Positions 32,832 to 56,046 of a stretch of 60,274 bases of DNA are shown one piece after another; the first letter of the stretch is position 1, and every line of letters begins with the position of its first letter. The notes below the pieces were generated by a model, which did no database searches, had not been told where the DNA came from, and saw nothing but the letters and a program-made list of their open reading frames with translations. The stretch comes from a virus. Its lineage: Duplodnaviria; Caudoviricetes. The stretch covers positions 1 through 60,274 of IMG/VR virus record IMGVR_UViG_3300027976_000041; one strand, 5' to 3'. The translations under genes and the position numbers were made by a program.

Positions 32832-33887
32832 CTAAGAATTCATTCGATCTATAAAATAGGTTCTGGCGATTTTCGCTACGTGAGGGAATACTTCCTTTGG
32901 AGAAATACCGCTCTTGACAAAAAGATCTGAACACTCTTTCATAATATCTTGGTTGACGAACTTTAGATATGCGCCAAGATGGGTCATCTCCATGTTCCCG
33001 CCGTTCAATAGATTACATGCAGCTTCAATCCCCTGGTCAAGCCTCCAGGCTGGGGTAACACCATTAGCTAAGATGATCCTTTCGTTTATCGAATCAACAT
33101 CCACTAGTGCCAAGGTTTTTACCTTTGAATTGGCGTGGGCGGTACCTTTTATTTTGAACATGAAGTCAGAAGATTCGTAACCTGGTGTGATACATTTCCA
33201 TACAACACCTTCACCAACAGTCACGTCGGTTCCAAGCACGCGACCAAAGTGTTTACCAATCGGACATTCAACTTCAACTGCGTCAGTAATGGCAATCATT
33301 TCGTTCACTGCTCTACCGGAGTTTTCAAAGTCAATATCGATGTGGTATGATCCGAAGTCCAAGATATTATAGATATTGTGCTCGGGTTCAGCAATATTAC
33401 CGACAGCCGCCATATCCATCCAAGTATGGGTTTCACCTTTGATAACCTTGATACCGAAGATGATAAACATCTTAGCAAGACCGTTGATTGATACGCCCTT
33501 TTGAATAGACCCACCGCACCACTCCCCGTAAATAGCAATCTTTTCAGGATATACAACATCACTTAGCGCATGAATATGTGTGAAGATAGAGAACAGTGCA
33601 GCTTCCTTACTCATCATATACAGCATGAATCCGGCGTTATCGGAAGTCAGTTCTAAAACACGTTCACGAGATTGATATTGAAGCGTGCTACTTGCAATGT
33701 CATAGATAATACCGCCGTTGGAACCGTGTGCTTTCGTGGTTCCTCGGAAAGTCAGTGTCGGCATCTTCGCGGTACGGTCAAACACGTTATCGCCGTTTTC
33801 ATCAAGCGAACGCCATTGTACTTTAGCTTGAACAGCCTTAGCACAGTTACGAAATTGATCGATACTAGGAAACTTGTAAATTGTCAT
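32832..33887 (-). CDS. RNA ligase (Rnl2-like nucleotidyltransferase)
   Basis: KAHGSN motif I, QSR, YGEWCG..IQKGV, GEGVVW, FKIKG. Confidence 0.85.
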   Translation of the reverse strand: MTIYKFPSIDQFRNCAKAVQAKVQWRSLDENGDNVFDRTAKMPTLTFRGTTKAHGSNGGIIYDIASSTLQYQSRERVLELTSDNAGFMLYMMSKEAALFSIFTHIHALSDVVYPEKIAIYGEWCGGSIQKGVSINGLAKMFIIFGIKVIKGETHTWMDMAAVGNIAEPEHNIYNILDFGSYHIDIDFENSGRAVNEMIAITDAVEVECPIGKHFGRVLGTDVTVGEGVVWKCITPGYESSDFMFKIKGTAHANSKVKTLALVDVDSINERIILANGVTPAWRLDQGIEAACNLLNGGNMEMTHLGAYLKFVNQDIMKECSDLFVKSGISPKEVFPHVAKIARTYFIDRMNS

Positions 33888-34107
33888 AATCTGCTTCGTT
33901 AACCACCCACCCATCATTTCTGAGGGCTTCCCGACCCTCGACGGTTTCGAGTAATCGATTCATGGTATTGTGTAATTTTTGAATTTCGGTTTGGACATAC
34001 TCAATTGAGTTCAAATGCATGCACCATACTGGGCGGAAGCCAAGCAGGTCTTTATGGAAGTCAGAGAACCGCGTGCGCAGTTCTTCTAGTTCAGTTGATT
34101 CATTCAT
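33865..34107 (-). CDS. Hypothetical early protein
   Basis: SD GGAG; FSDFHKD..GFRP motif. Confidence 0.65.
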   Translation of the reverse strand: MNESTELEELRTRFSDFHKDLLGFRPVWCMHLNSIEYVQTEIQKLHNTMNRLLETVEGREALRNDGWVVNEADYDNLQVS

Positions 34108-35364: not shown

Positions 35365-35622
35365 TTATTTCGGCCCCCAAAGTTCTATCTTAAAGTATAT
35401 TTTCTTTGTTTCAAAGCTTTTTAACTTTGTCATAAAATTGACTTTGATATCAAGGAGTTCCATATTATCCCTGTCTTGAATTAGTCGATTGAGAAACTCA
35501 ACTTCACCCTTGGATAATTCTGTAACCTCAAAATAAAATTGTGGGAACTTCTTGAGTTTCCACAATGCACGATTCAGCGATGGCAACGTGCCGTAAGCTA
35601 TTTCCCAGCAGATATCTTTCAT
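35365..35622 (-). CDS. Hypothetical protein
   Basis: ATGA-coupled to the epimerase. Confidence 0.55.
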   Translation of the reverse strand: MKDICWEIAYGTLPSLNRALWKLKKFPQFYFEVTELSKGEVEFLNRLIQDRDNMELLDIKVNFMTKLKSFETKKIYFKIELWGPK

Positions 35623-36473
35623 ACAGTCTCCATAATTGTCTTAATGTAGCCACGAACATTTCGTTTAGCCGACCACCCTAGACTTTGCGTCTTATAAGTG
35701 GAAAGGGTCGCTTCCATACGATTGCCGGCACGGTGCGCCATCATCTCAATTTCACCGCCAAACATTTTTGCTATATCAAGTACAGAATATGTTTCTTCAG
35801 AGCCGATACTATATCCATCACCGATGCCATTTTGTCCAACCAATATTAAGCCATCAACAATATCATCCACGTGGGTAAAGTTACGAAGCTGTGAACCCGG
35901 CGAAGTTATCGTCAGGGCTTTGCCATTTTTTGCTAGTCGAGCAAACTTTGCTATCAGCGTGGCATATTTGCCATCGGCGATCTCATTTTTCCCGTAGACA
36001 TTGTAGAAGTAGGTGATAGCATAATCAAGACCAAACCATATCCCATAATTCTTTACGAGCTCAGTGTTCTTTGCTTTCGTGAATGCATAGGGCGAACTGT
36101 CGGCACCGATATCACCAAATTTGGTAGAGGAACCTGCGTAGATAAGTTTGGCTTTTTTCGACCGAGCGAATTCAAGAACTTCAAAAGACCCTGTCGAATT
36201 AGATTCCCATACTTGCCGTATATCATCGAATGACTGTTCGACTCGAGGATATTCACCAAGATGGTAAATAGAGGTCGGCTTAAAATCAAGTTCAAAAATA
36301 TCGGCTGTATGCATATCATGATAGCTCACACCGGGTACGTGATTCGATCGAGAACCGGTACTATAATTATCAACTGATACCACGTTATGGCCAGTTTTCA
36401 CTAGTCGTTCACATAAATTACTACCAATAAAGCCTGCTCCGCCAGTTATTAGAATGTTCGTTCGTTCGTCCAT
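35619..36473 (-). CDS. NAD-dependent nucleotide-sugar epimerase/dehydratase (extended SDR)
   Basis: TGGAGFIGS, YAFTK (YxxxK), YFYNVYG, RNFTHVDD. Confidence 0.9.
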   Translation of the reverse strand: MDERTNILITGGAGFIGSNLCERLVKTGHNVVSVDNYSTGSRSNHVPGVSYHDMHTADIFELDFKPTSIYHLGEYPRVEQSFDDIRQVWESNSTGSFEVLEFARSKKAKLIYAGSSTKFGDIGADSSPYAFTKAKNTELVKNYGIWFGLDYAITYFYNVYGKNEIADGKYATLIAKFARLAKNGKALTITSPGSQLRNFTHVDDIVDGLILVGQNGIGDGYSIGSEETYSVLDIAKMFGGEIEMMAHRAGNRMEATLSTYKTQSLGWSAKRNVRGYIKTIMETV

Positions 36474-36490
36474 AATCGCCTAAAAATTAA

Positions 36491-36526
36491 ATTATAACAC
36501 CACTTCGGTAAAATAGAAATAAACTA
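36491..36526 (-). promoter_or_regulatory. Promoter: extended -10 plus upstream TAGTTTATTTCT box
   Basis: TGTTATAAT; same box and spacing as 39510-39545. Confidence 0.6.
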
Positions 36527-36590
36527 CCGTTCTTCATACATTCCAATCGCGGAAAACCGTTCTTTCAGTTCAACGAGTTCTAAGTCATGA

Positions 36591-37418
36591 TTATAGTTTC
36601 ACGTGTTGAGCTATCTCTCTTTCTAAAAGATTTGAATACCCACCACGAATGATCTTATTCACTCGAATTACTTCATCTAAAATGGTGAGTTTACAATCTG
36701 AAAAGTGAGAAAATGCTGCTGTATCTTTGAGGAAACAACTGCCTCCGGCTCCATACCGACCATCATTACCTGGAACCATTGTGTGACCGGGCGCAATTCG
36801 CGGGTCTGTCGTTACTGCTTCGCGAACGGTATTATAATCGGCGCCATACTTCGAACACAATGCTTCTATCTGATTGAAGAATAAAACCTTAGCCGTCAAA
36901 AATGAGTTCATCGTATACTTTACAAATGAGGCTTCAACAGCACTCATGTGGAAACGCGGCGCATCATTGTTACAGATTGACGCGTGGATGTATAACAGCT
37001 CCAGTTTCCTGGTCTGTTCAAGTTCACCACCGAATACATGCATAATTGGCCACTCGAAATCTCGTAATGCGTTACGTTCTGTTAAAAATTCTGGGTTATA
37101 GATAAAGTTCGTATAACGTACAGCTAATTTCTCAACGATATCGGGTACTACTGTGGATTTAAGAACCAGAAGAGTTTCCAAATATCTCAATTCAAACAAA
37201 ACCTTTTCAACAATAGATGCGTCAATTACACCATCACTCCCCATAGGAGTTGGAACACAAATAAAAATGGCGTCAAATTTCTCTTTGGTTTGAACCATAT
37301 CTGCGGTTGATGTTCCTAATAACGGGTCAGCTATTATTAAATTACAACCTTGAAACCCATGTGCTACAGCTCGTCCAACGAAGCCGTATCCAATTATTCC
37401 AATATTTGCTTTTTTCAT
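36591..37418 (-). CDS. UDP-glucose/GDP-mannose 6-dehydrogenase family (no C-terminal UDP-binding domain)
   Basis: GYGFVG, ICVPTP, KSTV.P, NPEFL, K...NSFL, GG.C..KD. Confidence 0.9.
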   Translation of the reverse strand: MKKANIGIIGYGFVGRAVAHGFQGCNLIIADPLLGTSTADMVQTKEKFDAIFICVPTPMGSDGVIDASIVEKVLFELRYLETLLVLKSTVVPDIVEKLAVRYTNFIYNPEFLTERNALRDFEWPIMHVFGGELEQTRKLELLYIHASICNNDAPRFHMSAVEASFVKYTMNSFLTAKVLFFNQIEALCSKYGADYNTVREAVTTDPRIAPGHTMVPGNDGRYGAGGSCFLKDTAAFSHFSDCKLTILDEVIRVNKIIRGGYSNLLEREIAQHVKL

Positions 37419-37464
37419 GTTGTTCCTAAAAATTCTGACAGGGGTTCGTTAACTGACTTTACCT

Positions 37465-38034
37465 TCACTCGCATGAATATGTGTCGAACTGACGTTTCAA
37501 GTCAGTTGGGGCAATCATATCCCAGTTGTTCGTGTGCGACTGTTCTTTGAATATCAAATGGTTTGTTGGCAACACTGCGAGACGATCATTTTTAAGTTTG
37601 ACGAAACTGAACTCTTTGGCTTGCTCTGGGTACAAAGAAAAACTATCACTCACCGGGGCAACTGTAAATAGGTAAGTCCCCGGTATTGTACGTTTATTGC
37701 CGTGCACGTCAATGCGTGCAGCGATTTCCAAATCCGACAAATATTCATATCGAATCGTCGAAAATCTTTCGCCGTAGCAGTTCCAAGCCTGCGCATCTTT
37801 CGGAGTCCACAAAGGTTCAGGAGTTTTTGAGAATGCCAAGGCGTGTACGGGGACATTGCGGTAGACCGCGCCGGATTTGAGCAGCACCGTGCAACCCCAG
37901 ACGCGACCTCGCATCGAAACCAGACCGTACCAAACAGCCTCTATAAATCCAATAGGTTGTGTGTGCGTGAACGTGGTATCGACAAAAATATATTGATGTT
38001 TAGGCAGCTCGCCTACAAGGGTGTAATCTGACAT
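37465..38034 (-). CDS. Hypothetical protein flanked by direct repeats
   Basis: 189-aa ORF; GAVYRNVP.HA and WNCY motifs. Confidence 0.7.
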   Translation of the reverse strand: MSDYTLVGELPKHQYIFVDTTFTHTQPIGFIEAVWYGLVSMRGRVWGCTVLLKSGAVYRNVPVHALAFSKTPEPLWTPKDAQAWNCYGERFSTIRYEYLSDLEIAARIDVHGNKRTIPGTYLFTVAPVSDSFSLYPEQAKEFSFVKLKNDRLAVLPTNHLIFKEQSHTNNWDMIAPTDLKRQFDTYSCE

Positions 38035-38042
38035 TGTTGTTT

Positions 38043-38273
38043 CTAAAAAAATTCTAACAGGGGTTCGTTAACCGCACTGTCGATAGACCATTTTAATTTT
38101 GTCACGGAATGCTTCTTCATAGCCTTCAGGTGTGGTGTACCAAGCAAATCTGCGAACTTTGCCAGATCAGTCTTATTACGAATCCGCACCATAATAAAGC
38201 GACCTTCGCCGCGTGACATTCGTTCAACTTCCGGAGACGGTTTTGTAAAATCTTCGGGTTCGTTATATAGCAT
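38043..38273 (-). CDS. Small protein associated with the glycosyltransferase
   Basis: V.I....DL.KFA.L.G pattern, similar to the neighbouring ORF. Confidence 0.6.
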   Translation of the reverse strand: MLYNEPEDFTKPSPEVERMSRGEGRFIMVRIRNKTDLAKFADLLGTPHLKAMKKHSVTKLKWSIDSAVNEPLLEFF

Positions 38274-38275
38274 AT

Positions 38276-38542
38276 TTAGTCCTCTTCAATCCACACAAAT
38301 AATGCATTTGAACCACGTTCCCCAGGGTCCAGGCGGGGAAACCATATTGACTTGGCGCTTCTGATACCGTTCTCTAGGATACTCTCGATCCCTGTCAGTT
38401 CGCAAAACTTTTTCATATCTGCTTCTGTTTGCATGCAAACTTCTACAACATAGGGCGCCTCAAATGCTTCTTGTTCATATGGGGGAAACCCAAGATAACC
38501 AATACGGTTTATTGTTTTGGCTCCAAAAAATTCTGTCGTCAT
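38276..38542 (-). CDS. Small protein associated with the glycosyltransferase
   Basis: GFPPYEQE...V.......D..KF..L.G....KSIWFP; ATGA-coupled to the GT. Confidence 0.65.
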   Translation of the reverse strand: MTTEFFGAKTINRIGYLGFPPYEQEAFEAPYVVEVCMQTEADMKKFCELTGIESILENGIRSAKSIWFPRLDPGERGSNALFVWIEED

Positions 38543-39477
38543 TCTAACTCCATTCGCACTTCGGTCATTGTTGTATTCGTATAAGATCCACAAATATTCT
38601 TTGGGTTATTCAACTTAACCAACTTAAGTTTAGTATCATATTCATCGGGCCAGGTGCAACCATCTTTCAAGATAAGCCTATTATTCTTTTGAAAATGCGA
38701 ATAATCTACCTGGTGATGGTGTCGCCCCCATTTAGTAGTTAGCTCAACACAATCTGGATGCGCGCGATGCAGAGATGCAGCAAATGAATATCGGTTATCG
38801 AAATCCTTCTTATCACCAATCTTATAGATAGCCTCAGTATTTCCACCCTTCATCTGATTGGTTGCAGCTTTACCAACAGCGAATGAATTCAATAAAATTG
38901 TGCAATAGCCTTTTTTTAAGAGCTGAAGGGATAAATCTGTATCTTCATTGAATGGTGCGGGTTTGTTATCCCATTCAAGAACTCGCCAACGTTCAGAAAT
39001 GGAGTTATCCAAGAGGATACACGAGTAGATTCTCGTGTTATAATAAGCGGGCTCCTTTTTAACGAATGATGGGCAGAAGAAGTGATAGTTCAGACCGCTC
39101 ATTTTTACATTAGTAAAGCGATCCGTATAATCTTCTAATACTCGAAATGGTACAGATGATCTAACACGCAATTTAGTATTTTGGTGGATACGATATAGAT
39201 ATCTAAAGTTATCGTCGCACACCCAATGCCGCTTGTGCCCTTCGGCTATAGAATGTTCCCAGATCCAATTGCGAGCGGGGATGCCACCAAGCCCAAGATT
39301 TTTGAATGGTAGTACCAGAATCTTCTTTGGATTGATGACTGAGGCATATTTGTCGTATTCTTGTTCTTCGATTACGATTCTATAATCCATGTCGTTTTCT
39401 TCGAATGTTTTTGACGTCATTCGAGATTCCCATCTGCCCTTTGAGAGGATGTAGATAGGGTAGCGGGTTTGCTTCAT
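38539..39477 (-). CDS. GT-A fold glycosyltransferase, TET-associated (TAGT)/GREB1-like
   Basis: YPIYI.SKGR, E.QEY..Y, G.IPARNW.W.HS...G..RHW..DDN, TRIYSC.L, NEDTDLSL, MKGGNT, GR.HH.VDY. Confidence 0.8.
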   Translation of the reverse strand: MKQTRYPIYILSKGRWESRMTSKTFEENDMDYRIVIEEQEYDKYASVINPKKILVLPFKNLGLGGIPARNWIWEHSIAEGHKRHWVCDDNFRYLYRIHQNTKLRVRSSVPFRVLEDYTDRFTNVKMSGLNYHFFCPSFVKKEPAYYNTRIYSCILLDNSISERWRVLEWDNKPAPFNEDTDLSLQLLKKGYCTILLNSFAVGKAATNQMKGGNTEAIYKIGDKKDFDNRYSFAASLHRAHPDCVELTTKWGRHHHQVDYSHFQKNNRLILKDGCTWPDEYDTKLKLVKLNNPKNICGSYTNTTMTEVRMELE

Positions 39478-39509
39478 TTAATCTTTCGCGTTGTTCATTG
39501 TATAGTTTA

Positions 39510-39545
39510 ATTATAACTTATCTTTGGGAAACCAGAAATAAACTA
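39510..39545 (-). promoter_or_regulatory. Promoter: TATAAT plus upstream TAGTTTATTTCT box
   Basis: Same box and spacing as 36491-36526. Confidence 0.6.
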
Positions 39546-40337
39546 TACCATAGCCGTGAGTTCTGCCAAACTAATGATTTTGATACCGAGATCACGGGCT
39601 TTCTGAGTTTTTCCTGAGGTTGAATGAATATCCTTACACACAAGAATCGTGATAGCCTTGGAGAAGTTTTCTACGACCTCACCACCCATCGACTGCACTT
39701 TGGCAATCATCTCAGGCGATAATCTAACACCTGTTGCGATAATCACTTCATTTATGAGAGCGCCTTTGCCGAGAACGACTGCTTTCGGTTGAACGAATTT
39801 AACTTTCGATTTGATGCGTTGATATATTGTGTTAGCAGAACTTGCATTGCAATGAAGTAATTCCGCCGATTTTACATCATAGCCTTGGAGCTCACAGTAT
39901 TCCTCAACCGAAACCCGTCCAGATAATACTTCCTCAACCGTGTACTTATCAAATACTACTTTGAGCTTTCGTTCGCCGAGCCCACGGCCAAATAAACCAA
40001 GCGCCGCGAACAAGCGTTGAGGCGTGGTTGATTCAAGAATCTTTTTCATCATGATCCCAGCTTTACGACCGTTTTCGCCGATAACTTCTTCTAGAACTTC
40101 TGGGTTGTTGATAATACCCACCGCGCTAAAGAAACCATGTTCAATCAGTTTTGCGACAGAACCTTCGCCAATCCAATCAATCTCCATCTTCGAGAAGAAA
40201 TATTGAAGCACCTTGGCGCGCTGTTCATCGGCGCCCTCGGCTGAAGTAGATACAAGATCAACACCCGTGGCATTCCATTCTACACCAGCTCTGCCTCCTG
40301 GGAATTGCCCGTAAAACCAATCATCATATGTTTGCAT
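39543..40337 (-). CDS. ligA: NAD-dependent DNA ligase, C-terminal part (HhH and BRCT)
   Basis: WN.TGVD, IGEGSV.KL, FGRGLGERK HhH; BRCT I.ATG.R...GG.V...FSK....LV......SGK..KA..LGI.II. Confidence 0.85.
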   Translation of the reverse strand: MQTYDDWFYGQFPGGRAGVEWNATGVDLVSTSAEGADEQRAKVLQYFFSKMEIDWIGEGSVAKLIEHGFFSAVGIINNPEVLEEVIGENGRKAGIMMKKILESTTPQRLFAALGLFGRGLGERKLKVVFDKYTVEEVLSGRVSVEEYCELQGYDVKSAELLHCNASSANTIYQRIKSKVKFVQPKAVVLGKGALINEVIIATGVRLSPEMIAKVQSMGGEVVENFSKAITILVCKDIHSTSGKTQKARDLGIKIISLAELTAMV

Positions 40338-40359
40338 AATAAATCCGAAATAAAAATGT

Positions 40360-40367
40360 TATAAATA
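40360..40367 (+). promoter_or_regulatory. Late promoter TATAAATA for the endonuclease
   Basis: Exact consensus about 90 nt upstream of the ATG at 40459. Confidence 0.7.
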
Positions 40368-40368
40368 C

Positions 40369-40398
40369 ATTATAACACATTTTGTTATAAAAGTAAAA
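40369..40398 (-). promoter_or_regulatory. Early promoter driving the ligase C-terminal half
   Basis: TTTACT-N17-TATAAT with TGTG extension, matching the other early promoters. Confidence 0.8.
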
Positions 40399-40458
40399 AG
40401 TGCCATCCACGGGCCTCGAGAGCCCCGACGACAGTACGCAACCCTACTAGGAGTCTTT

Positions 40459-41253
40459 ATGCGCAACAAAAATATTTATCAATTCAACTATGTCTACCGT
40501 ATTACCAACATAGTTACTAGTATGCATTATTACGGTTGTAGAAGCTGTGATATTGATCCAAAACTAGACCTTGGTATCAAATACTTTGGTTCACTTACGG
40601 GTGAAGTCGGTAAAGCCTTTAGAGCCGACCAAAAAGCAAATCCGTCAAAATTCAAGTATAAGATCGTTAGAATATTCACCACACGTGAATCTGCACTAAC
40701 ACTCGAAATAATGCTCCATGCTATGTTTGATGTTGGCCGCAACCAGAAATTCTACAATATAGCAAAACAGACATCAACTTGGTATGATAGAACTGGTGTG
40801 CCAGTTTCTCCAGAAGTTTTAGCAAAAAGGACTATCACGCTCGCAAGAAATAGAGCGGCCCCTGGTTACATACACCCGCTTAGTGGTAAGAAGCGTTCGG
40901 CCATTCATATAGCGAGTAGCATTACCGCTAGGGCGATAATTCGGGCTAAACCAGATTACATAAATCCTCAAAAGGGTAAAAAACACACGAAAGAACATAA
41001 TGCTAGTATTGCAGCCGGTATGGCAAAAGCTAACGCCGTTCCTGGGTATATAGATAAACGTACTGGCACAGTATGGTCAGAGGAAACTAAAATTAAGGCC
41101 GCAAAAATTCGAGCAAGAAGAAGGGCTGAACCGGATTATATCAGGCCCGTATATCGGACGAATGTTTTCGTCCGTAAAATGAAACGCTTTTATTGCAGGG
41201 GGCCTGGTTTACCAAACCCGATAATGGTTGGTATAACATCTCCCGCTCGGTGA
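40459..41253 (+). CDS. GIY-YIG (Seg-like) homing endonuclease inserted antisense in ligA
   Basis: YVYRITN...HYYG.RS...YFGS, A..LE..LH..FDV..N..FYN; about 30-aa basic repeats; AGGAG SD. Confidence 0.85.
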   Translation: MRNKNIYQFNYVYRITNIVTSMHYYGCRSCDIDPKLDLGIKYFGSLTGEVGKAFRADQKANPSKFKYKIVRIFTTRESALTLEIMLHAMFDVGRNQKFYNIAKQTSTWYDRTGVPVSPEVLAKRTITLARNRAAPGYIHPLSGKKRSAIHIASSITARAIIRAKPDYINPQKGKKHTKEHNASIAAGMAKANAVPGYIDKRTGTVWSEETKIKAAKIRARRRAEPDYIRPVYRTNVFVRKMKRFYCRGPGLPNPIMVGITSPAR

Positions 41254-42278
41254 ATCTTAACAATTGAACCCGGTTGAATTTTGTTATCATAAATGAATCG
41301 TGCATTAAAACCAGAGCATCTGGAGATAGTAACCCCGCCAATATACACTGGCTCGATAAGTATGACTGGTTTGTAAAAACTGTCTTTTGACACGGACCAC
41401 TCGATTCCTATCACCTCTGTTTCTACGGAGCTATTCACCAGTTTAATTTTTACTGAGTAATTAGGATTTAAATCATCGGATGTAGCATTGAACTTTCGAT
41501 ATTCAATACTATCAACATCGACTACCACACCATCGAGTTCGTATTCTGAGTGCTCGATCATCTGTGCGATTACCATTTCAACATCTTTATAAGTAAAATG
41601 GCAATTCTGTAAGTATGTAACTGGTGTGGTGAAGTTATAGTGCTGCGATAGTATACGCATCTGTGCACTCTTATCCATTAGATTTTTGTAATTGGCGAAC
41701 ATCTCGAACGCCACGAATTTAAAATATTTGTAAAGTTCGCCTTGACCTTTAGTCGAGTTTAAGAATCCTGCGACGAAGTTACGGGCATTAGCATACTCGC
41801 GGTCGGCTTCGGCCAGAAGCGCGGGCCAATCCTTTTTAGCAATCACCAATTCGCCCCGGATAAAACCTGTAAACTTATCTCCAGTATGGGCGGGAAGGCC
41901 AACCATCTTAGATGTATGACGGATATTGGATGCGCCATAAACTCCATCGCCACGAGACCAGGAATTGATCAGGACGCCGTTTTTGTATTCCAGCAGGCAA
42001 GAATTGCCGTCGATTTTTTCGGTGAACAGATATTCACGAGCCTTTGGAAAGTTGTTTTTCCAAGCCGACCACTCTTTTTCATTGCGAATTTGATTCAAAC
42101 TGCCCATCACCATAGGCAATTTTTCCTTGCCTGTGCGTTCGTTTGAACCAATGTGCTTCAGAATCTCGGGGTTGGTTTTGGATAGAGCAAGTTCGAATGC
42201 GTCGAACTCAGTATCCGTCATGATGGGATCGCCCGCGAAGTAGGATTTCTTCGCGGCGAAATATTTGGAAACAGTCAT
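41190..42278 (-). CDS. ligA: NAD-dependent DNA ligase, N-terminal part (adenylation and OB domains)
   Basis: Y..G.PIMTD.EFD, MGSL, EKIDG, SRGDG, RGEL, ARNFVAG, ELDGVV, RAGDVIP. Confidence 0.92.
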   Translation of the reverse strand: MTVSKYFAAKKSYFAGDPIMTDTEFDAFELALSKTNPEILKHIGSNERTGKEKLPMVMGSLNQIRNEKEWSAWKNNFPKAREYLFTEKIDGNSCLLEYKNGVLINSWSRGDGVYGASNIRHTSKMVGLPAHTGDKFTGFIRGELVIAKKDWPALLAEADREYANARNFVAGFLNSTKGQGELYKYFKFVAFEMFANYKNLMDKSAQMRILSQHYNFTTPVTYLQNCHFTYKDVEMVIAQMIEHSEYELDGVVVDVDSIEYRKFNATSDDLNPNYSVKIKLVNSSVETEVIGIEWSVSKDSFYKPVILIEPVYIGGVTISRCSGFNARFIYDNKIQPGSIVKIHRAGDVIPTIIGFGKPGPLQ

Positions 42279-42280
42279 GA

Positions 42281-42511
42281 TTAGATATAGAAGGGGGTTT
42301 TGAATTCAAGTTTATTGTAAACAATTTCACGAACTGCGGTATCAAGACATTCGGCGAATTGTCCATCAAACTTTTCTGCGAGTTCTTCGAGTTCTTCAAG
42401 AACCTGTGGCCAGGTCAGTTTCAGAACCCAGGCCTCACGTACAATAGCGTGAACAGCATCGTCACCGAAGTCTGTATACATGCTATATTTGTTATCGACG
42501 AGATCGATCAT
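42281..42511 (-). CDS. Hypothetical early protein
   Basis: YSMYTDFGD.AV...E..DTAVRE.VY motif. Confidence 0.65.
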   Translation of the reverse strand: MIDLVDNKYSMYTDFGDDAVHAIVREAWVLKLTWPQVLEELEELAEKFDGQFAECLDTAVREIVYNKLEFKTPFYI

Positions 42512-42512
42512 T

Positions 42513-42701
42513 TTAGTTTCCGTTTCTGAAGTACTGAAGTGCAACTGATTCGGAAGAGCCGTGAACCATCAGTGATATTGCAGCCAGGGCCCGGCGCTCG
42601 ACCGTCTCAGCATAGCGGCGCTGTGTATAAGTTTTTGCCGTTATTTGATCTAAGCGAACTTTATCAATTATTCTGCCGAGTTTTTTAGTAAGATTTGTCA
42701 T
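42513..42701 (-). CDS. Hypothetical early protein
   Basis: AAGGA SD and early promoter at 42726-42755. Confidence 0.6.
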   Translation of the reverse strand: MTNLTKKLGRIIDKVRLDQITAKTYTQRRYAETVERRALAAISLMVHGSSESVALQYFRNGN

Positions 42702-42718
42702 TCCGATTCCTTGTTTTG

Positions 42719-42973
42719 TTAGTTTATTATAACACAACAAGGGATAAAAGTAAACCAGGTTAGCGGCCGGAGCGAACCGGTCCGAACCGGTCCGATTTTT
42801 GGGAGCAGCCGAAGCTCCCTACGACGAGATTCCATTGCAGCGTCTACTCTATTCTGCTTGACGATAGCAGTCGGTACCACACGGAAATCCCGAGAATCAG
42901 CGGTAGAAGAACGAACGGGAGTCGTGTCGATGAGAACGGTGCGAGGGGAAGAAGTTGAGAGTATTGTTTTCAT
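42719..42973 (-). CDS. Hypothetical basic protein (probably leaderless)
   Basis: ATG lies 6 nt after the -10 box. Confidence 0.45.
   Translation of the reverse strand: MKTILSTSSPRTVLIDTTPVRSSTADSRDFRVVPTAIVKQNRVDAAMESRRRELRLLPKIGPVRTGSLRPLTWFTFIPCCVIIN
42726..42755 (-). promoter_or_regulatory. Early promoter
   Basis: GTTTACTTTTATCCCTTGTTGTGTTATAAT. Confidence 0.8.
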
Positions 42974-42979
42974 TCGGCT

Positions 42980-43009
42980 ATTATATCACACACCGGAATA
43001 AAAGTAAAA
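42980..43009 (-). promoter_or_regulatory. Early promoter
   Basis: TTTTACTTTTATTCCGGTGTGTGATATAAT. Confidence 0.8.
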
Positions 43010-43202: not shown

Positions 43203-43409
43203 TTAGTTCCTAAAGTTAAGTTTGTAATCAATCATACAATCGACCCACGCGTTTTGGTAGATCAAAAGTTCTTTCCATGTGGGATGGTTCACATCCTCAT
43301 GCATAGTTGTAACTTCTTCTAAGATCGGCATAGACATAAAGAAGTTCATACTTACGTGAGCGATCTCGCCGTCGCCCAAAATTTCACGTATTTCGTCGGT
43401 TGTTCTCAT
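43203..43409 (-). CDS. Hypothetical protein
   Basis: ATGA-coupled to the upstream gene. Confidence 0.55.
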   Translation of the reverse strand: MRTTDEIREILGDGEIAHVSMNFFMSMPILEEVTTMHEDVNHPTWKELLIYQNAWVDCMIDYKLNFRN

Positions 43410-43849
43410 ATTTTAGGTGTAATGTGTCGGTGATTTATTCTACAATTGATGATGCCATTAAAATACTTATCTTGATTTTCCAAAACCTCAGAAAGCATCT
43501 GCTCTTTAGCTTCCCAATACGACATGCCGCCTTTGGTGCTGCAGAAAAACAAAATTTCTCGCGTGAATTTATCTTCGCCGAGTTCCTTAACAAGCTGAAC
43601 AAGCTTCTCGCTACTGCTCCAATATGTCGGCCAATCTGACTGCACTAAAGTTTTTGTTTTCTTTTTATATTTCGCGCCATTTTTTCTCTTCAAAGTTTTC
43701 ACGGACGTCTTCTTAAAAAACAAAAGTTTTTTTCCAAGATATGCCTTGCCATTTTCCAAACAAGTAATTTTGTAAATGAAACCTAAAGCGTTTTCGGGAA
43801 TAAGAGTTTCGTTAAATGGCGCATCATGGTATACCCACTCAGACATCAT
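43406..43849 (-). CDS. Short GIY-YIG-family nuclease
   Basis: GFIYKIT....K.YLGKK, SDW..YWSS, F.REIL, Y.E.K.Q, YFNG.I. Confidence 0.75.
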   Translation of the reverse strand: MMSEWVYHDAPFNETLIPENALGFIYKITCLENGKAYLGKKLLFFKKTSVKTLKRKNGAKYKKKTKTLVQSDWPTYWSSSEKLVQLVKELGEDKFTREILFFCSTKGGMSYWEAKEQMLSEVLENQDKYFNGIINCRINHRHITPKI

Positions 43850-44016: not shown

Positions 44017-44274
44017 CTATTTAACGCACTCTTTTAAACTAAGTAACTCCGTGAAGCCCCCGATATAGATACCATCAACAAAAATAACCGGAACAGCGCG
44101 AGCGGTCGGCGCTAATTTCATAAGGTCTTCTCTAATGATATAAGTTAGTGTGGTATCTTTCTCTTGGTTTATATCTACATGAATTTCTTCAAAAACCAAC
44201 CCCCTCTTTATAAGAAAATTCTTTGCTTGGACACAGTAAGGGCAATTTGGCTTGGAATAAATTATTATCATCAA
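44017..44274 (-). CDS. nrdC: Glutaredoxin
   Basis: IYSKPNCPYC, AVP.IF.DG.YIGGF. Confidence 0.92.
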   Translation of the reverse strand: MMIIIYSKPNCPYCVQAKNFLIKRGLVFEEIHVDINQEKDTTLTYIIREDLMKLAPTARAVPVIFVDGIYIGGFTELLSLKECVK

Positions 44275-45371
44275 AAGTCCACATCAAAGGAAGTTACAGA
44301 ATCGTCACGAATTATAGAGTTTACTTTATAGGCATTTGCGTCTTGCTCTTGTGGCGCAGCTTGGGTCTGACCGATGTTTATCCAGTTTTCTACATGGGGC
44401 ATTGGATTATATCTTGGAAACTTATGTTCAGATTCGATATCTAAAAATGTATAAACATCCCGCGCATTATATAGAACAAACTGCTTCACCATAGCCGCAT
44501 TGGTACCAACCAACTCCCGCCCATCGCTGAATAGGTTTGTCGTCCACGCAAGTTCGGATTCAACGACCTCATCGAGTAGGGCCTTTATTTTATCCTTCTG
44601 ACGCTCGTATGATACACGCCCGCGTGCTGTTGCCAATTCAATCCGAAGAACCTCTTTATCAAGTTCAACGTGAACCTCAAGCTCGTCCTGTGCAATTTTC
44701 TGAACTGCTTTTCCGATTGGTTGGAATAAATTGGAAGAGCAGATGGTGAAGGTGACAGCAAATGATGCCATAAACTGCACCCGTTCAAGCATCAGCAGTG
44801 CTACGATACCCATAAACAAGTCATCATATGCTTCGATGATCTTGACTTTACCAAGCGCGTACTTATGTGATGTATTATACAGGGTTTCCATCACGGTACC
44901 TACTGTTGATAACCGCGCGAATGATTCCTTGACGGCTAGTACTTCAGAGAGTACTGTTGTGGGGTCATCAAAAGACATTCGTACAATCTCGGAATATGTT
45001 GCTGAATGAATAACTTCATTATCAGAGATACGCTGCCATGCTGCCCATAAAGATGCATCAGTGATAAACGGCGCAAGCACTGGTGCGATAGATCGTGATG
45101 CTATGGAGTCGGCTTCCCACTGCCAAGCCAAAGTTCGGATCATTATATCATAAACTGACTTAGGGCAATTTTTAAAGTCGAGGTTGCACTGTGTGTAGTC
45201 AAATTCCGCTTCGTCCCAATCTAATGATTTCATGGTTTTGTATATTGCCCAAATCTTCGGATAGGGTTTGTTCACTGTATTGAACAAACCCGGATCTGGG
45301 CCAAAAAACAATGGGGCACTCCGATCAAGATAAGACTCTTCTGTTTGTTCAAAATTAAATACTTTGCTCAT
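44271..45371 (-). CDS. nrdB: Ribonucleotide reductase class Ia beta subunit
   Basis: W...EFD, EADS, EVIHS.TY, E.VQF..SF, DE..VH, APQE. Confidence 0.95.
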   Translation of the reverse strand: MSKVFNFEQTEESYLDRSAPLFFGPDPGLFNTVNKPYPKIWAIYKTMKSLDWDEAEFDYTQCNLDFKNCPKSVYDIMIRTLAWQWEADSIASRSIAPVLAPFITDASLWAAWQRISDNEVIHSATYSEIVRMSFDDPTTVLSEVLAVKESFARLSTVGTVMETLYNTSHKYALGKVKIIEAYDDLFMGIVALLMLERVQFMASFAVTFTICSSNLFQPIGKAVQKIAQDELEVHVELDKEVLRIELATARGRVSYERQKDKIKALLDEVVESELAWTTNLFSDGRELVGTNAAMVKQFVLYNARDVYTFLDIESEHKFPRYNPMPHVENWINIGQTQAAPQEQDANAYKVNSIIRDDSVTSFDVDF

Positions 45372-45396: not shown

Positions 45397-45404
45397 TATA
45401 AATA
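45397..45404 (+). promoter_or_regulatory. Late promoter TATAAATA for the endonuclease
   Basis: Exact consensus followed by a stem-loop leader. Confidence 0.8.
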
Positions 45405-45462
45405 GGTGGTACTCGCGGTTTCTGAGACCCAGTACCATTAGCCAACTCAACAAGGAGCCTTT

Positions 45463-46224
45463 ATGGCCAAGTCATATACTTATCATTACGCATACCGTAT
45501 CACAAACAAGGTAACCGGAATGCACTACTACGGTGCACGTAGTTGTAATATCGAACCAAAACTAGATCTCGGTTACATTTATCCCGGCTCACTCTCAAAT
45601 AAAGAGGGTGTTATATTCGTGGCCGATCAAAAAACTAATCCCCGAAACTATAGGTACAAGGTTGTTCAAATATTTGAAACTCGCATACTGGCAATATCAC
45701 GCGAAATAATCCTCCACGCCATGTTCAACGTGAAGTGCCATCCAAAGTTCCACAATAAGTCAAACCAAACATCCACCGGATGGGATACCACTGGTACGAC
45801 CATGCCAGAAGGAGCTACGTTGAAGCGACTTAGTACCCGAGCGAATAATGATGCACTCCTAACATTAGCTAAAAGGGAAAAACGTGCCGCTGACCGAACA
45901 GCGCGCCGCATTGCAAAGGCGGCCGGTGGATTCGTTCGCAAAAAGCAAACTCCAATATCTTCAGAAGCAAATGCCATCAAAAAGCAAAAAGAAAGATATA
46001 CACGGGCCATAAATGATGCACGCAGATCACCAGAAGATACAGCGACAAATTACGCAAAGAGACTTGCATCATGGGCTCAAACTATGGCTAATGGTTTCGA
46101 GCACCCGAATAAGGGAAGGAGCCCTTCGGCGGTCTCCGAAGCATCTCGCCTGGCCTCCAGAGATAGAAACCAAGCAGCCGGGAAGATTTACAATAAACCC
46201 GGGCCCAAGATTAATAGATCATAG
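45463..46224 (+). CDS. GIY-YIG (Seg-like) homing endonuclease, antisense between nrdA and nrdB
   Basis: YAYRITN..TGMHYYGARS..PKLDLG; paralog of 40459-41253. Confidence 0.85.
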   Translation: MAKSYTYHYAYRITNKVTGMHYYGARSCNIEPKLDLGYIYPGSLSNKEGVIFVADQKTNPRNYRYKVVQIFETRILAISREIILHAMFNVKCHPKFHNKSNQTSTGWDTTGTTMPEGATLKRLSTRANNDALLTLAKREKRAADRTARRIAKAAGGFVRKKQTPISSEANAIKKQKERYTRAINDARRSPEDTATNYAKRLASWAQTMANGFEHPNKGRSPSAVSEASRLASRDRNQAAGKIYNKPGPKINRS

Positions 46225-48486
46225 CGTACACGACTCGCATGGCTCTTCGTCATCTGGTGCATCCAAACTTATTAGAGCATTTTCGGTTGTATTAAGATCA
46301 ACTCCATCAGAAGTTAGGCTCACGACATAATATCTTGTCTTCATTCCGAACTTCACCATGTCCAGGTAGTCGTTGATCATGCTCGATGATGTTACCTTAT
46401 CGTCGCCGACGATTCTCACAAACAGGTCGGCACTAATACCTTGGTCGGTCCACTTTTGCATCACAGCATATACTTTGATCATGTCTGTCGTGGCTATATC
46501 CCATGCAGACTGATATCGAACCTTCAGCTTTGTCGAATCGGGTGCGCACCAGTGATTCACTGCAGTATCGTTTGTCTTCATGATGTATGTTTCACGAATA
46601 GGGTATGGTCCATTCGTAGTACCTGAACTGATACTGCTAGACTCGCCTGGCATATAAGCTGCTAGCACAGAGTTACGAATTCCGCCGTTCTTGATGATTT
46701 TTGATCTGAGTGATTCCCAGTCTCGTTTGTTTTCAATCGTAACCAAACCACCCACCCGCTTTTCATAGGTATCGATAGGCAACCATCCAGATGGCCATTT
46801 TGTTTTGTTCATCCATGGAGCATTACCGAGTTCTTTACCAAGACGCAATGACGCGTTGATGAGATGATATATGTGTGTCTCAGCAAGCTCGTGAATAAAG
46901 TTCAAACCATCTTGATCATCATACTTTTTGTTCTTCATCGCCATAAGGTGTGCAAGACCCATCATACCAACGCCAGCCGACATACGAGCTTTTGCTGTAT
47001 CGTCTAGATTTTTGAACACATAGTCAGATTTGAAGATACACACGTCGATCATTTTAAGACTGTAATAAGCAGCATCGGCATACATCTCATCTGATTCGAT
47101 ATTCGATACGACAATCCCAGCAAGGGAACAGAGCCCTATTTCGCCGCCGCCTTCTGTATATGATTGATACAGACCTGCGACCGATTTATATGCTGATGTC
47201 GGAAGAGCTATTTCGGCGCATAAGTTACTTGAATAAATTTTGTCGTTAAACGGTGTATGCTGATTCATCATGTCGGTCATATGAAGATACTGAACCCCGG
47301 TTTCATACGATTGGGTTAGGGCGGCCAACAATACATCGCGGGCATTTAGTTTATGGATTGACGTTTTTTCAAACTCGGCATACATTTCTTCAAATTTCGT
47401 TTGATCGGTGTCGTACATCGCTTCATACATCTCTGGATGTGTAGAGTATGAGAACAGTGAGTACAACTCGTTCCGGGCCGCGCGCCGAGCAAATAGCTTA
47501 TTGGATCCAAAGTTATAATGACAGCCGCCGATCTTTTTGCTGGCAGGCGTCATTGGATGCTTTAGCTTCATAATCACCTCGACCTCTGGGTCAAAGCATG
47601 TGTAATACACAGTTGACGCGCCCCCGCGACCATTCTGCATGTTCGCGCCAATAGCTCCAACCATGGCGCGATAGTAGGGTAGTTTGCCCTGATGCTGGAT
47701 CATACCGCCACGGATTGGATCGCCAAGCGATCGCGTCTTAATGTGGGTACCGATACCCGCGCTCATGCACGTCATCATATACGCAATGTGATCGCCCGCA
47801 GCCAGACTTGGTGCAGAGTCGTGGGTTGTGTACAGACAGCACGACGCATAGCCGTTCAGTGCAGTACCGAGATTCACGAAGTTTGGGGTCGGCGCGTTGA
47901 TACGATTGTGAGCGAAGTGCTCGTACCACTTGGCCACGTGGAGCAAACGGTCGGACTTTTCATTCTCCCCTAGTGCCATGGCCATACGCATATACACGAA
48001 CTGAGCGGTTTCATATTCCAGTTTAGTAACCTTATTACGGATAGCATACTTGTTACGGATCTGATTCAATTGGAAGTGAGGATATTTCAAGTCGATTTTA
48101 TGATCAATGACACTCTCAAGATGTTCATAGTCATCGTCTGTATAGTTCAGTTTTACCATAAGACCTGCATCAAACAACCGAGAGTGCAGTTTTTTGATAG
48201 TTGGTCGGCCAGTTGGATATATGATGCGCGTCAAGAGGGCTGAGTATAATCGACCAGCCATGCGGTTGTATTCCCACGTCTTCCGATTAATACATACGTT
48301 GATAAGAGTCTCTTGAAGCTGCAAGGAACTACATTCGGTTGGACATTGATTAACTGCTTCAAGAATAACCGTTGACCATTCAACATGACCATTCAATGTC
48401 TTAGCTGCCCACATTCCCCAACCGTTTACTTTAGAAGGAGAGAATGGTTGGGTAGAACCATCCCGCTTGATGATAGTCTCGATCAT
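46219..48486 (-). CDS. nrdA: Ribonucleotide reductase class Ia alpha subunit
   Basis: IKRDG ATP cone, PTP, ASCC, SNLCAEI, LCSL, MPGESSS, DQGISAD, KTRYY, C-terminal CESC. Confidence 0.96.
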   Translation of the reverse strand: MIETIIKRDGSTQPFSPSKVNGWGMWAAKTLNGHVEWSTVILEAVNQCPTECSSLQLQETLINVCINRKTWEYNRMAGRLYSALLTRIIYPTGRPTIKKLHSRLFDAGLMVKLNYTDDDYEHLESVIDHKIDLKYPHFQLNQIRNKYAIRNKVTKLEYETAQFVYMRMAMALGENEKSDRLLHVAKWYEHFAHNRINAPTPNFVNLGTALNGYASCCLYTTHDSAPSLAAGDHIAYMMTCMSAGIGTHIKTRSLGDPIRGGMIQHQGKLPYYRAMVGAIGANMQNGRGGASTVYYTCFDPEVEVIMKLKHPMTPASKKIGGCHYNFGSNKLFARRAARNELYSLFSYSTHPEMYEAMYDTDQTKFEEMYAEFEKTSIHKLNARDVLLAALTQSYETGVQYLHMTDMMNQHTPFNDKIYSSNLCAEIALPTSAYKSVAGLYQSYTEGGGEIGLCSLAGIVVSNIESDEMYADAAYYSLKMIDVCIFKSDYVFKNLDDTAKARMSAGVGMMGLAHLMAMKNKKYDDQDGLNFIHELAETHIYHLINASLRLGKELGNAPWMNKTKWPSGWLPIDTYEKRVGGLVTIENKRDWESLRSKIIKNGGIRNSVLAAYMPGESSSISSGTTNGPYPIRETYIMKTNDTAVNHWCAPDSTKLKVRYQSAWDIATTDMIKVYAVMQKWTDQGISADLFVRIVGDDKVTSSSMINDYLDMVKFGMKTRYYVVSLTSDGVDLNTTENALISLDAPDDEEPCESCTL

Positions 48487-52046: not shown

Positions 52047-53549
52047 TTATTCCTCAAAATCTTCGGTAGAAACCGTATCTGATTCCACACCATCTATAAA
52101 TGTAGAAAGTTCTACTTTAAATCCCCAAAGATTTTGAACGTGTTGCAATACGGCTAATGTATCCTTTTCGTGTAATTCAGAACCATCCTGGGAAATATAA
52201 TGGAGTTCTAAACGCCGGGTTGAATTTAGATTGGCAGAATATACTTGAATATTAGGAGTAATTTTAGATCGATCATATCTATTAGCTAGAGTAGCTCTAA
52301 TCTCTTTATAACCCTTTTCGTCATGAATTTGTTCAACGACATACGCACGATCATTTAAATCGGCGATCTGAAACATTCTAAATTCCCGCATAACCTTAGG
52401 CCCGAGGAACTGTCGTATACCCGATTCGTCGTTGTAGTTTGCAACAATATCTCGAATTACTCCAAAGTGATTGCCTTTGCCCGCAATGGCGGGAAACCAT
52501 TGGCGATCTTCTTCATCTGGTTTAGTACAGATTCGTTCTATATCACGCAGAATTGCCAGACCGAGTGCATAGGGATTAAAATTTGGGCCAACCTGCTCAA
52601 AGGTACCTTGACGCACAACAGCGGACTGTACATCTGCGATCTCAAGCATAGAGCCTTCAGAGATTAATCCCTTTTCATACAGCCGACCCAAAATATACAT
52701 GTGCGTATATGTGGCCATACCTTCATTAAGAACCTTTGTTTTCGACTGCCCATTAAAGTATGTTGCTATGGTGCGAACGATTCTAATTATCTCGCGTTTC
52801 CATGGGGCTAGTGATGGGGAGTGCTTTTCGATAAATTTTAGAATATTTTCTTCTGTATCGATAGGGAATTTCTTGTGTTCAGTTTCTATAACCTTTGGAG
52901 GTTCTGGTAATGTACTATCCATTACAATATCAACCTGTGATAAAAGATATTCTTCTCGAGCTAGACGATGAGCTGTATCTTCGGCTAGATTAAATACTTT
53001 CTTTTTTGTTTTATCAACCCCCTGTTGCTCTAGAGCGTGAGCTGAATCCAATATAGATTCCACTTCGCCTAGGCCATATTTTTCTTCGCAATTAGAGATA
53101 AATTTCTTAGCGAATGTAAGATAATCTATTATAGAATCCGCCATACCCAATTCTTTAAATAGATAGTTATGTTTAAAGAAATGATTGTGGCCGAATGCGG
53201 CGTGCGCTATAACTAGTGCTTGTATAGTTGCAGAGTTGCCCTCCATAATAAAATTGATACATGGGTTTGTGTTAATTACAATCTCATATGCCAGTCCGCT
53301 ATGGCCCTTCCTATAGTTATATTCATCTCTAGCAAATGATTTTCCAAAGCTCCAATGATTATATCCCGTGGTAAGGCCGACTCGACTATACGCATCTAGC
53401 ATCTGTTCGCTTGTAGTGATATAGAATGTGTTTGGATATATATCTAATCCCATTTCACTGATGGCGATTTTTTCACACTCAACTGCTATTTTAGAAATAG
53501 TATCGGCATTCCACTCGTTATCGACAAAAAGTAATTTAGATTTTTTCAT
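52047..53549 (-). CDS. spoVR: SpoVR/YcgB family protein
   Basis: HWSFGK, GLAYEIVIN.NPCI, AHAAFGHNHFFK, TKV.NEG.ATY.H, NPYALG. Confidence 0.95.
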   Translation of the reverse strand: MKKSKLLFVDNEWNADTISKIAVECEKIAISEMGLDIYPNTFYITTSEQMLDAYSRVGLTTGYNHWSFGKSFARDEYNYRKGHSGLAYEIVINTNPCINFIMEGNSATIQALVIAHAAFGHNHFFKHNYLFKELGMADSIIDYLTFAKKFISNCEEKYGLGEVESILDSAHALEQQGVDKTKKKVFNLAEDTAHRLAREEYLLSQVDIVMDSTLPEPPKVIETEHKKFPIDTEENILKFIEKHSPSLAPWKREIIRIVRTIATYFNGQSKTKVLNEGMATYTHMYILGRLYEKGLISEGSMLEIADVQSAVVRQGTFEQVGPNFNPYALGLAILRDIERICTKPDEEDRQWFPAIAGKGNHFGVIRDIVANYNDESGIRQFLGPKVMREFRMFQIADLNDRAYVVEQIHDEKGYKEIRATLANRYDRSKITPNIQVYSANLNSTRRLELHYISQDGSELHEKDTLAVLQHVQNLWGFKVELSTFIDGVESDTVSTEDFEE

Positions 53550-54823: not shown

Positions 54824-54824
54824 A

Positions 54825-55157
54825 TTAAACTGAGAAGGATGATCCACAGCTACATGTAGATGTAGCGCCGGGATTATTCGTGACGACAAATTGTGCGCCA
54901 GCCAGATTGTCATTATAATCTATAATAGATCCAACCAGATACTGATAGCTCATTGCGTCGATCAAGAGGGTTACACCGTTCGTGACCGTGGTCATATCGT
55001 CTTCCTCGATATCTTCGGCGAACGCGAATCCGTAGGAAAAGCCAGAACAGCCTCCACCCTGTACAAAAACGCGTAGCATAAGACCGGGCTTGCCGTCTTC
55101 GGCGAGTAACTCTGCAACCTTTACGGCCGCTGATTCGGTAAAAATTATTTCTGTCAT
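54825..55157 (-). CDS. erpA: A-type Fe-S carrier ErpA
   Basis: [47 protein letters not shown]. Confidence 0.92.
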
Positions 55158-55483
55158 ACTTTTTTGATGTGAAAACTTTCGCCGCAACCACACATTGTAT
55201 CGACGTTAGGATTGTCAAATTTGAACATCTGCTTGAGCCCTTCGGTGACGAAATCTATACGACTACCATCAAGATATTGTAGATTTATCTTATCGATCAA
55301 TACCGTGGCACCATATGCCTCAAATATATTATCTGTATCTGTTACATTGCCTGCTATTTCGAATGTGTGTGCCAAACCAGTACACCCAACCTTCTTGATA
55401 CCGATTCGCAATCCAATACCTGGCTGTTTCTCAAGTTGGTGGCGAATCTGTTTCGCGCAATTTTCAGTTAGTATGATTGCCAT
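55154..55483 (-). CDS. iscA: A-type Fe-S carrier IscA
   Basis: MAI.LTE, GLRIG.K..GCTG, FKF.NPN....CGCGESF. Confidence 0.92.
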
Positions 55484-56042: not shown

Positions 56043-56046
56043 AATA

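Follow-up and report, generated by a model that had tools for sequence, protein, structure and literature searches.

A DNA ligase gene in two pieces: an antisense homing endonuclease gene interrupts ligA of a metagenomic phage

Introduction

The locus described here raises the question whether an NAD-dependent DNA ligase (LigA) can be cut into two genes by an invading homing endonuclease gene (HEG) and still give a working enzyme. It lies in a viral metagenome record of 60,274 nucleotides (nt), IMGVR_UViG_3300027976_000041, which in its full length is called the window in the following; its estimated completeness is about 28%. A sequence-only reading of this DNA had proposed that ligA is split into two separately translated open reading frames (ORFs) by a free-standing antisense HEG, and the in silico analysis supports this. 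An antisense HEG in the linker behind the OB fold, with two LigA polypeptides that reassemble non-covalently into a working enzyme, is regarded as the probable explanation. The locus is composed of the following features.

41190..42278, minus strand: N-half of LigA, an ORF of 362 amino acids (aa) with Pfam and phrog_3869 matches
41223..41393, minus strand: break-proximal OB segment, aa 296-352 of the N-half, mosaic and predicted to contact the C-half
41190..41253, both strands: antisense overlap of 64 nt between the 3' ends of the HEG and the N-half, from the ORF coordinates
40459..41253, plus strand: HEG, an ORF of 264 aa with a phrog_314 match
40399..40458, plus strand: 5' leader of the HEG, in which an AGGAG ribosome-binding site precedes the ATG by 6 nt and a small hairpin is predicted
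40369..40397, minus strand: candidate sigma-70-like promoter of the C-half (TTTACT, 17-nt spacer, TATAAT, TG extension)
40360..40367, plus strand: TATAAATA, a putative T4-type late-promoter motif 92 nt upstream of the HEG ATG
40302..40328, minus strand: YDDWFYGQF element (C-half residues 4-12), a conserved feature of the beginning of stand-alone C-halves
39543..40337, minus strand: C-half of LigA, an ORF of 264 aa with its own ATG and with BRCT and phrog_3869 matches

The interrupted ligase gene

The coordinates claimed for the split, the three ORFs and the 64-nt overlap of HEG and N-half all match the ORF listing. LigA is not encoded here as a single polypeptide, as an in-frame stop is followed by a separate ATG. 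From the N-half stop (41190-41192) to the C-half ATG (40337) there are 852 nt between the two ORFs, and the HEG ORF takes up all but 121 nt of the insert.

The N-half matches the adenylation domain PF01653 (1.6e-20) and, at residues 286-354, the OB domain PF03120 (2.3e-14). It had been stated to stop just past its RAGDVIP motif, and the ORF indeed ends about 10 residues after it. On the 656-position profile of phrog_3869, annotated as NAD-dependent DNA ligase, the N-half corresponds to positions 18-379 and the C-half to positions 405-652. A 12-sequence alignment contains 91 invariant N-half columns, among them K88-x-D90-G91 with K88 as the KxDG lysine. Within the first 30 residues, where the phrog_3869 match starts at profile position 18, Y13, D22, F25 and D26 are invariant, and these are presumed to correspond to the domain Ia residues of the Escherichia coli enzyme. 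The best PDB match of the N-half is full-length LigA, 1v9p, residues 107-389. PDB entries 9hu3 and 9i5i hold a solved 339-residue chain named 'DNA ligase (NAD(+))', which aligns to residues 10-353 of the N-half and covers the Ia-NTase-OB span only; a literature search with the code 9HU3 turned up no paper.

The C-half matches BRCT (PF00533 and PF12738, 6e-7 and 8e-6) and consists of a cysteine-free remnant at the Zn-finger position, an HhH region and the BRCT domain. No HhH Pfam domain was matched in the C-half itself; PF14520 is present in some of its relatives. A four-cysteine Zn finger was not found, as there is no cysteine in residues 1-60 of the C-half and no PF03119 match. The four cysteines are also absent from the uninterrupted relatives P0002-P0007, and the missing Zn finger is therefore a trait of the clade and not an effect of the split. 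To the C-terminal parts of these same intact proteins the C-half is 52-65% identical; against PDB sequences it gave no match at E<=0.01. The statement that both halves are open and keep their motifs thus held, with intact ORFs and with the invariant columns, including the KxDG lysine, retained.

The sequence-only reading had also named an assembly artefact as something to be checked, and both junctions were reproduced with 0 differences in the Logan assemblies of three runs. In run X1, the full 3 kb are covered without a single difference by one contig of 17,468 nt. The same region is obtained from runs X2 and X3, and contigs of X3 cross both junctions. The three runs belong to three studies, of which X1 and X2 are possibly source samples of the record, and X3 is not flagged as such. 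A HEG-free joint was found in no contig of the three runs. The exact N-half protein occurs on 5 contigs, as does the exact C-half protein.

Introns and inteins

A search of both strands of positions 39000-43000 against Rfam gave no family at E<=1, and on this ground an intron is not assumed. In the halves, no intein or Hint domain was detected, only ligase and BRCT domains. The N-half tail past the OB fold and the C-half head before YDDWF align to the linker of intact proteins, which leaves no spare length. Two candidate explanations were rejected on this basis, namely an intron of group I or II that carries an endonuclease ORF (Rfam without match at E<=1 in 39000-43000) and a fractured gene with a split intein (no intein domain, no extra length at tail or head). 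Invasion by an HEG without an intron, as proposed before, agrees with the negative Rfam search, the lack of an intein and the 121 nt outside the HEG ORF.

Uninterrupted relatives and recurrence of the break

In a large protein collection, the closest relatives of the N-half (P0002-P0009, eight sequences with 55-63% identity) are single proteins of 561-623 aa, which combine the adenylation, OB and BRCT domains. When the halves are aligned to intact relatives, the break falls in the linker that follows the OB fold and no core residue is lost, which bears out the earlier claim that the gene is cut at a domain boundary. A DNA search of the 3-kb region against phage records gave no match.

The same break is found in other ligases. 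From the 119 listed non-self matches of the N-half, 11 are 361-399 aa long and end 7-21 residues past a G(D/E)(V/I)IP motif. One of these split N-halves, P0014, lies on a contig of 6,740 nt, and P0188, a stand-alone C-half of 264 aa, is likewise listed on 6,740 nt. Among 92 ligase loci from viral and metagenome contigs, 81 are uninterrupted, nine are cut by a contig end and two have early stops (L017 and L019). L017 has the same architecture as the window: an N-half, an antisense endonuclease ORF that overlaps the N-half by 47 nt, and a C-half. Its endonuclease ORF is preceded by TATAAATA on its own strand and belongs to a different family from the HEG of the window (phrog_559, 3.8e-44); L017 is the only one of the other split metagenomic alleles for which the content between the halves is known. 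Directly after its C-half, at 7697-8626 on the minus strand, L017 carries a further homing-endonuclease-like ORF (phrog_3339, 4.8e-11), so that this C-half is bracketed by two endonuclease genes.

The C-half was compared with 1.84 billion cluster representatives, which gave 2005 matches, and the best 150 of these were analysed. Thirty-three of the 150 are at most 310 aa long, and 14 of these 33 open with a leader of 2-10 residues followed by a Y-x-x-W-F-type element. This element is present in only three of the 100 proteins of at least 560 aa in the same set (Fisher p = 1e-7). In the uninterrupted proteins P0004, P0006, P0042, P0059 and P0245, the native linker consists of a PGP-like tail, a few residues and YxEWF. 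Therefore, the tails of the N-halves and the heads of the C-halves are the two sides of one ancestral linker, which is cut at a single position. These alignments indicate that many diverged metagenomic ligases share this break, in one case with an unrelated HEG in antisense orientation, and that stand-alone C-halves start at a conserved YDEWF-like element, as seen in 14 of the short proteins among the best 150 matches; both observations are new here, as are the mosaic flanks and their modelled position between the halves, which are described below.

A further pair of sequences shows both states side by side. P0041 (371 aa) shares 94-99% of the first 295 aligned residues with P0043 (611 aa); P0041 stops 19 residues past GDVIP, and P0043 is uninterrupted. 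This may be a polymorphism of near-identical phages with and without the insertion.

The endonuclease and its second copy

The HEG matches phrog_314, annotated as 'homing endonuclease', at 3.3e-21. Its own Pfam scores are under the cut-offs (SegE_GIY-YIG, E 0.028; NUMOD3, E 0.058); among 21 aligned members of its family, NUMOD3 is matched by 15, SegE_GIY-YIG by eight and GIY-YIG by three. In these 21 sequences, Y11, Y13, Y24, G26, E83 and N100 show no variation, R28 is conserved to at least 90%, and these seven columns are assumed to hold the catalytic roles of a GIY-YIG nuclease. Judging from its family profile, the protein is a free-standing GIY-YIG-type homing endonuclease with NUMOD3-like repeats. 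Database gene callers begin it at Met22 (P0121), and its relatives align from the upstream ATG. No relative of the protein was found in viral contigs, and neither the protein nor the profile of the 21-sequence family gave a match to PDB sequences at E<=1.

A second copy of the HEG is located at 45463..46224 on the plus strand, antisense between nrdB (44271-45371) and nrdA (46219-48486). The two copies are 54% identical over a nuclease domain of 127 aa, and their C-terminal parts differ. A third endonuclease gene, of the SegE type of GIY-YIG enzymes (PF19835, 1.2e-30), was found at 43406-43849 on the minus strand. Three homing-endonuclease genes are thus located within about 6 kb, amid genes for replication and nucleotide metabolism.

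Expression signals

The C-half was said to start at 40337 with its own promoter, and a sigma-70-like site was found at 40397..40369 on the minus strand. With TTTACT, a spacer of 17 nt, TATAAT and a TG extension, it agrees at 10 of 12 positions and is one of three top-scoring ties in 39300-42700; the leader between it and the C-half ATG is about 25 nt long. On the opposite strand, TATAAATA at 40360-40367 directly adjoins this promoter, in agreement with the earlier description of a C-half promoter abutting a late promoter of the HEG. We read TATAAATA as a T4-type late promoter. This assignment is putative and is based on the position of the motif upstream of ORFs and on T4 biology. It also occurs 59 nt upstream of the second HEG copy (45397-45404, plus strand) and, on the correct strand, within 100 nt upstream of several other ORF starts. 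In the whole window the motif is not clearly enriched, with 11 occurrences versus 6.55 +/- 2.57 in shuffled sequences and at least 11 in seven of 100 shuffles.

The leaders of the two HEG copies are homologous. The hairpin predicted in the HEG leader is not significant (z = -1.63). About 30 nt that bear the C-half promoter are absent from the region upstream of the second copy (45397-45462). In this alignment of two sequences, the presence of the promoter-bearing stretch at the ligase locus only would fit selection for a promoter of the C-half.

Mosaic flanks and the modelled interface

Sequence identity changes abruptly near the break. P0010, which is identical to the N-half ORF of L017 and thus a split allele, was compared with the uninterrupted P0012: 256 of 296 positions are identical for aa 1-295 versus 31 of 57 for aa 296-352 (p = 2e-7). 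In this last segment, P0012 is identical to P0017 at 55 of 57 positions, and P0010 has its nearest sequences among the other split alleles. Across the break, the C-half of L017 shares 36% of its residues with P0012 in the stretch 21-45 and 82% in the stretch 46-180; the former is naturally variable and the numbers are small. The N-half of the window and the split allele P0014 share 25 of 32 residues (78%) in aa 321-352 and 141 of 312 (45%) elsewhere (Fisher p = 4e-4). Versus the closest intact relative of the window, P0002, the drop near the break lacks statistical significance (p = 0.25). The mosaic flanks fit the pattern expected from homing in which the flanking sequence is co-converted, a process reviewed in PMC2988022; recombination in the reverse direction may also account for it.

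A model of the complex of N-half and C-half reached a score of 0.73, and the best control reached 0.32. The mark applied to such models is reached by 58 of 80 solved complexes and by two of 110 mismatched pairs. Contact agreement between the model runs was at least 56%, and the predicted local distance difference test score (pLDDT) of the partner was at least 84. The modelled interface brings residues 292-303, 325-335 and 361-362 of the N-half together with residues 2-12, 19-30 and 35-46 of the C-half, and in the model it coincides with the mosaic OB segment and the YDDWF head of the C-half.

Comparison with known systems

Phage T5 has long been annotated with two genes for LigA, ligA and ligB (PMC3632103). 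As in the window, one LigA is encoded there by two adjacent genes, ligA (T5.116) and ligB (T5.117). T5 ligA ends eight residues past GGVIP and ligB starts at the Zn finger, which is the OB boundary homologous to the break in the window, and two promoters are annotated in the gap before ligB, similar to the promoter before the C-half. However, the T5 gap is 202 nt long and without an endonuclease gene, whereas the gap in the window holds an endonuclease ORF of 264 codons, and T5 LigB retains the four-cysteine Zn finger, whereas the C-half of the window is without cysteines there. Of 445 matching phage records (at least 80% coverage), 431 have the pair of the T5 type, and it is also found in Aeromonas phage Akh-2, which belongs to another genus. 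This conservation across phages indicates that a two-piece LigA is compatible with a lytic life cycle. Every match of the window N-half in phage records is below 60% identity, and the T5 split is probably independent because the T5 halves are only distant relatives of the halves in the window. Thus, the novelty implied by the sequence-only reading was overrated, as the T5 genes are cut at the homologous place and have promoters in the gap (PMC3632103). On the biochemistry of T5 LigA/LigB or of any two-piece LigA, literature searches, which did not cover supplements, gave annotation-level mentions only, and under the same limit no paper on an endonuclease inside ligA was found.

Free-standing endonucleases are known to split other phage genes, namely nrdA (mobE, Aeromonas phage Aeh1), gene 43 (seg43(25), phage 25) and the T4 topoisomerase gene 60/39 (mobA), as described in PMC2988022. 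The same source reports that the split NrdA is active, that 43A and 43B co-purify and polymerise, and that in phage 44RR gene 43 is split without an endonuclease. The precedent of nrdA and mobE in Aeh1, to which the sequence-only reading had pointed, is hence documented there. In these genes in pieces, as in the window, an essential gene of DNA metabolism is cut by a free-standing HEG without intron or intein, and the window likewise has an endonuclease-interrupted gene with uninterrupted relatives. Unlike them, the gene cut in the window is ligA, the HEG is antisense and overlapping, and the downstream half is preceded by a dedicated host-type promoter. Within T4, segD alone is described in PMC2988022 as antisense to its neighbours, and it is sited between genes.

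Fractured genes of metagenomic phage-like loci, which include one DNA ligase, are broken by a free-standing GIY-YIG or Vsr-like endonuclease (Dassa et al. 2009, PMC2677866). They differ from the locus described here in that, according to that source, split inteins lie at the break and the proteins are trans-spliced; the split ligase is without an intein. Single-chain phage LigA proteins that lack the Zn finger (P0002-P0009 and those of the jumbo phages Atu_ph07 and XacN1) have the domain order and the cysteine-free linker of the window and are uninterrupted.

Proposed mechanism and alternative explanations

The record carries T4-like genes, namely a gp32-type single-strand-binding protein, a gp5-like baseplate hub with lysozyme, nrdA and nrdB, and a primase-like protein, and the phage would be a large T4-like freshwater myophage. 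A free-standing GIY-YIG-type HEG would lie antisense in the short linker that connects the OB fold with the remainder of ligA. The upstream message would give the N-half (Ia-NTase-OB). For the C-half (Zn-finger remnant, HhH and BRCT), translation would start at its own ATG, aided by a sigma-70-like promoter that would stand back-to-back with the TATAAATA late promoter of the HEG. The halves would reassemble non-covalently, with the YDDWF head of the C-half docked against the side of the OB fold that lies next to the break, and the reassembled halves would seal nicks, as may LigA and LigB of phage T5. The timing of expression, the assembly of the halves and the ligase activity of the pair are in this scheme predictions from the arrangement of the locus.

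Two separate polypeptides are the best explanation because the closest relatives are uninterrupted and no intron or intein was found. Several points weigh against it. Only about 28% of the genome is in the window, which leaves room for another ligase, and a gene at 32832-33917 on the minus strand encodes an RNA-ligase-family protein (PF09414, 1e-11) as a possible second nucleic-acid ligase. The C-half has a weak ribosome-binding site (GGA). Taken as a class, promoter-like sites show no enrichment in the region (12 versus 7.7 +/- 2.7 in shuffles), and searches of phage records and viral contigs brought up no close DNA relative. Moreover, the pass of the complex model may reflect likeness to solved single-chain LigA structures, and our own alignments were used for it.

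The first three of these points would also suit an inactivated ligase, where the halves are recent relics, or the N-half alone keeps a partial function such as self-adenylation, and the phage uses the LigA of its host or another phage ligase. Nevertheless, inactivation is unlikely, as both ORFs are fully open with the invariant columns kept, stand-alone halves with matching ends persist in many diverged lineages, and the split pair is kept throughout T5-like phages. In addition, the C-half has a dedicated strong promoter that is absent from the cassette of the second HEG copy. A rejoining of the halves at the RNA or protein level, by an intron with an antisense endonuclease gene, by split inteins or by translational bypassing, appears very improbable in view of the Rfam result and the mere 121 nt outside the HEG ORF, of a tail and a head that comprise just a few residues each, match the intact linker in the alignment and are without any intein or Hint domain, and of the in-frame stop with its separate ATG. 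The record is a metagenomic contig, and a chimeric assembly or a sequencing error could in principle mimic a split gene; yet identical sequence with both junctions bridged in three runs from three studies (two of them possibly source samples), the exact half proteins on 5 contigs each and the same architecture in the unrelated locus L017 reduce the chance of this to almost nil.

Neighbouring genes

Just downstream of the C-half, the region 35619-39477 on the minus strand encodes a TET-associated glycosyltransferase (PF20691, 5.4e-36), a UDP-glucose/GDP-mannose dehydrogenase-like protein and an NAD-dependent epimerase/dehydratase. The glycosyltransferase and sugar genes suggest, by their family matches, a possible sugar hypermodification of the phage DNA. 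At 52047-57984 on the minus strand, a DUF444 protein (2.1e-142) is encoded between two large proteins that match only phrog_35217 and phrog_22605, PHROGs of unknown function. This cluster resembles the bacterial PrkA / DUF444 / SpoVR stress trio, which would be unusual in a phage.

Implications

The arrangement is not new in kind, as the two-gene LigA of the T5 type and HEG-split genes such as nrdA and gene 43 are already known. Further interest comes from the antisense HEG with its apparent back-to-back host-type and late promoters, the recurrent break, the conserved head of the C-half and flanks that match the modelled interface. With this locus, ligA would join the short list of essential phage genes that survive cuts by free-standing homing endonucleases. 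The two-piece form does not appear to be a one-off, since stand-alone C-halves that start at the conserved element occur in at least 14 clusters at 50% identity. An endonuclease gene at the same boundary as the unexplained two-gene ligase of T5-like phages would also offer a concrete origin for that split.

As a tentative and rather doubtful extension, the mobile unit might be the HEG together with its flanks, that is, the last approximately 57 OB residues and the YDEWF head, so that co-conversion would deliver a ready-made subunit interface along with the break. If so, any recipient LigA would tolerate the cut, and the site could subsequently be taken or vacated by different endonucleases. 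The empty gap of T5 would then be an end state, and a portable 'split-and-reassemble' module would have been spread by selfish genes. Independently of this extension, the conserved element together with the mosaic flanks suggests that a split ligase is held together by a small interface that lends itself to testing and may be of use in the engineering of split ligases.

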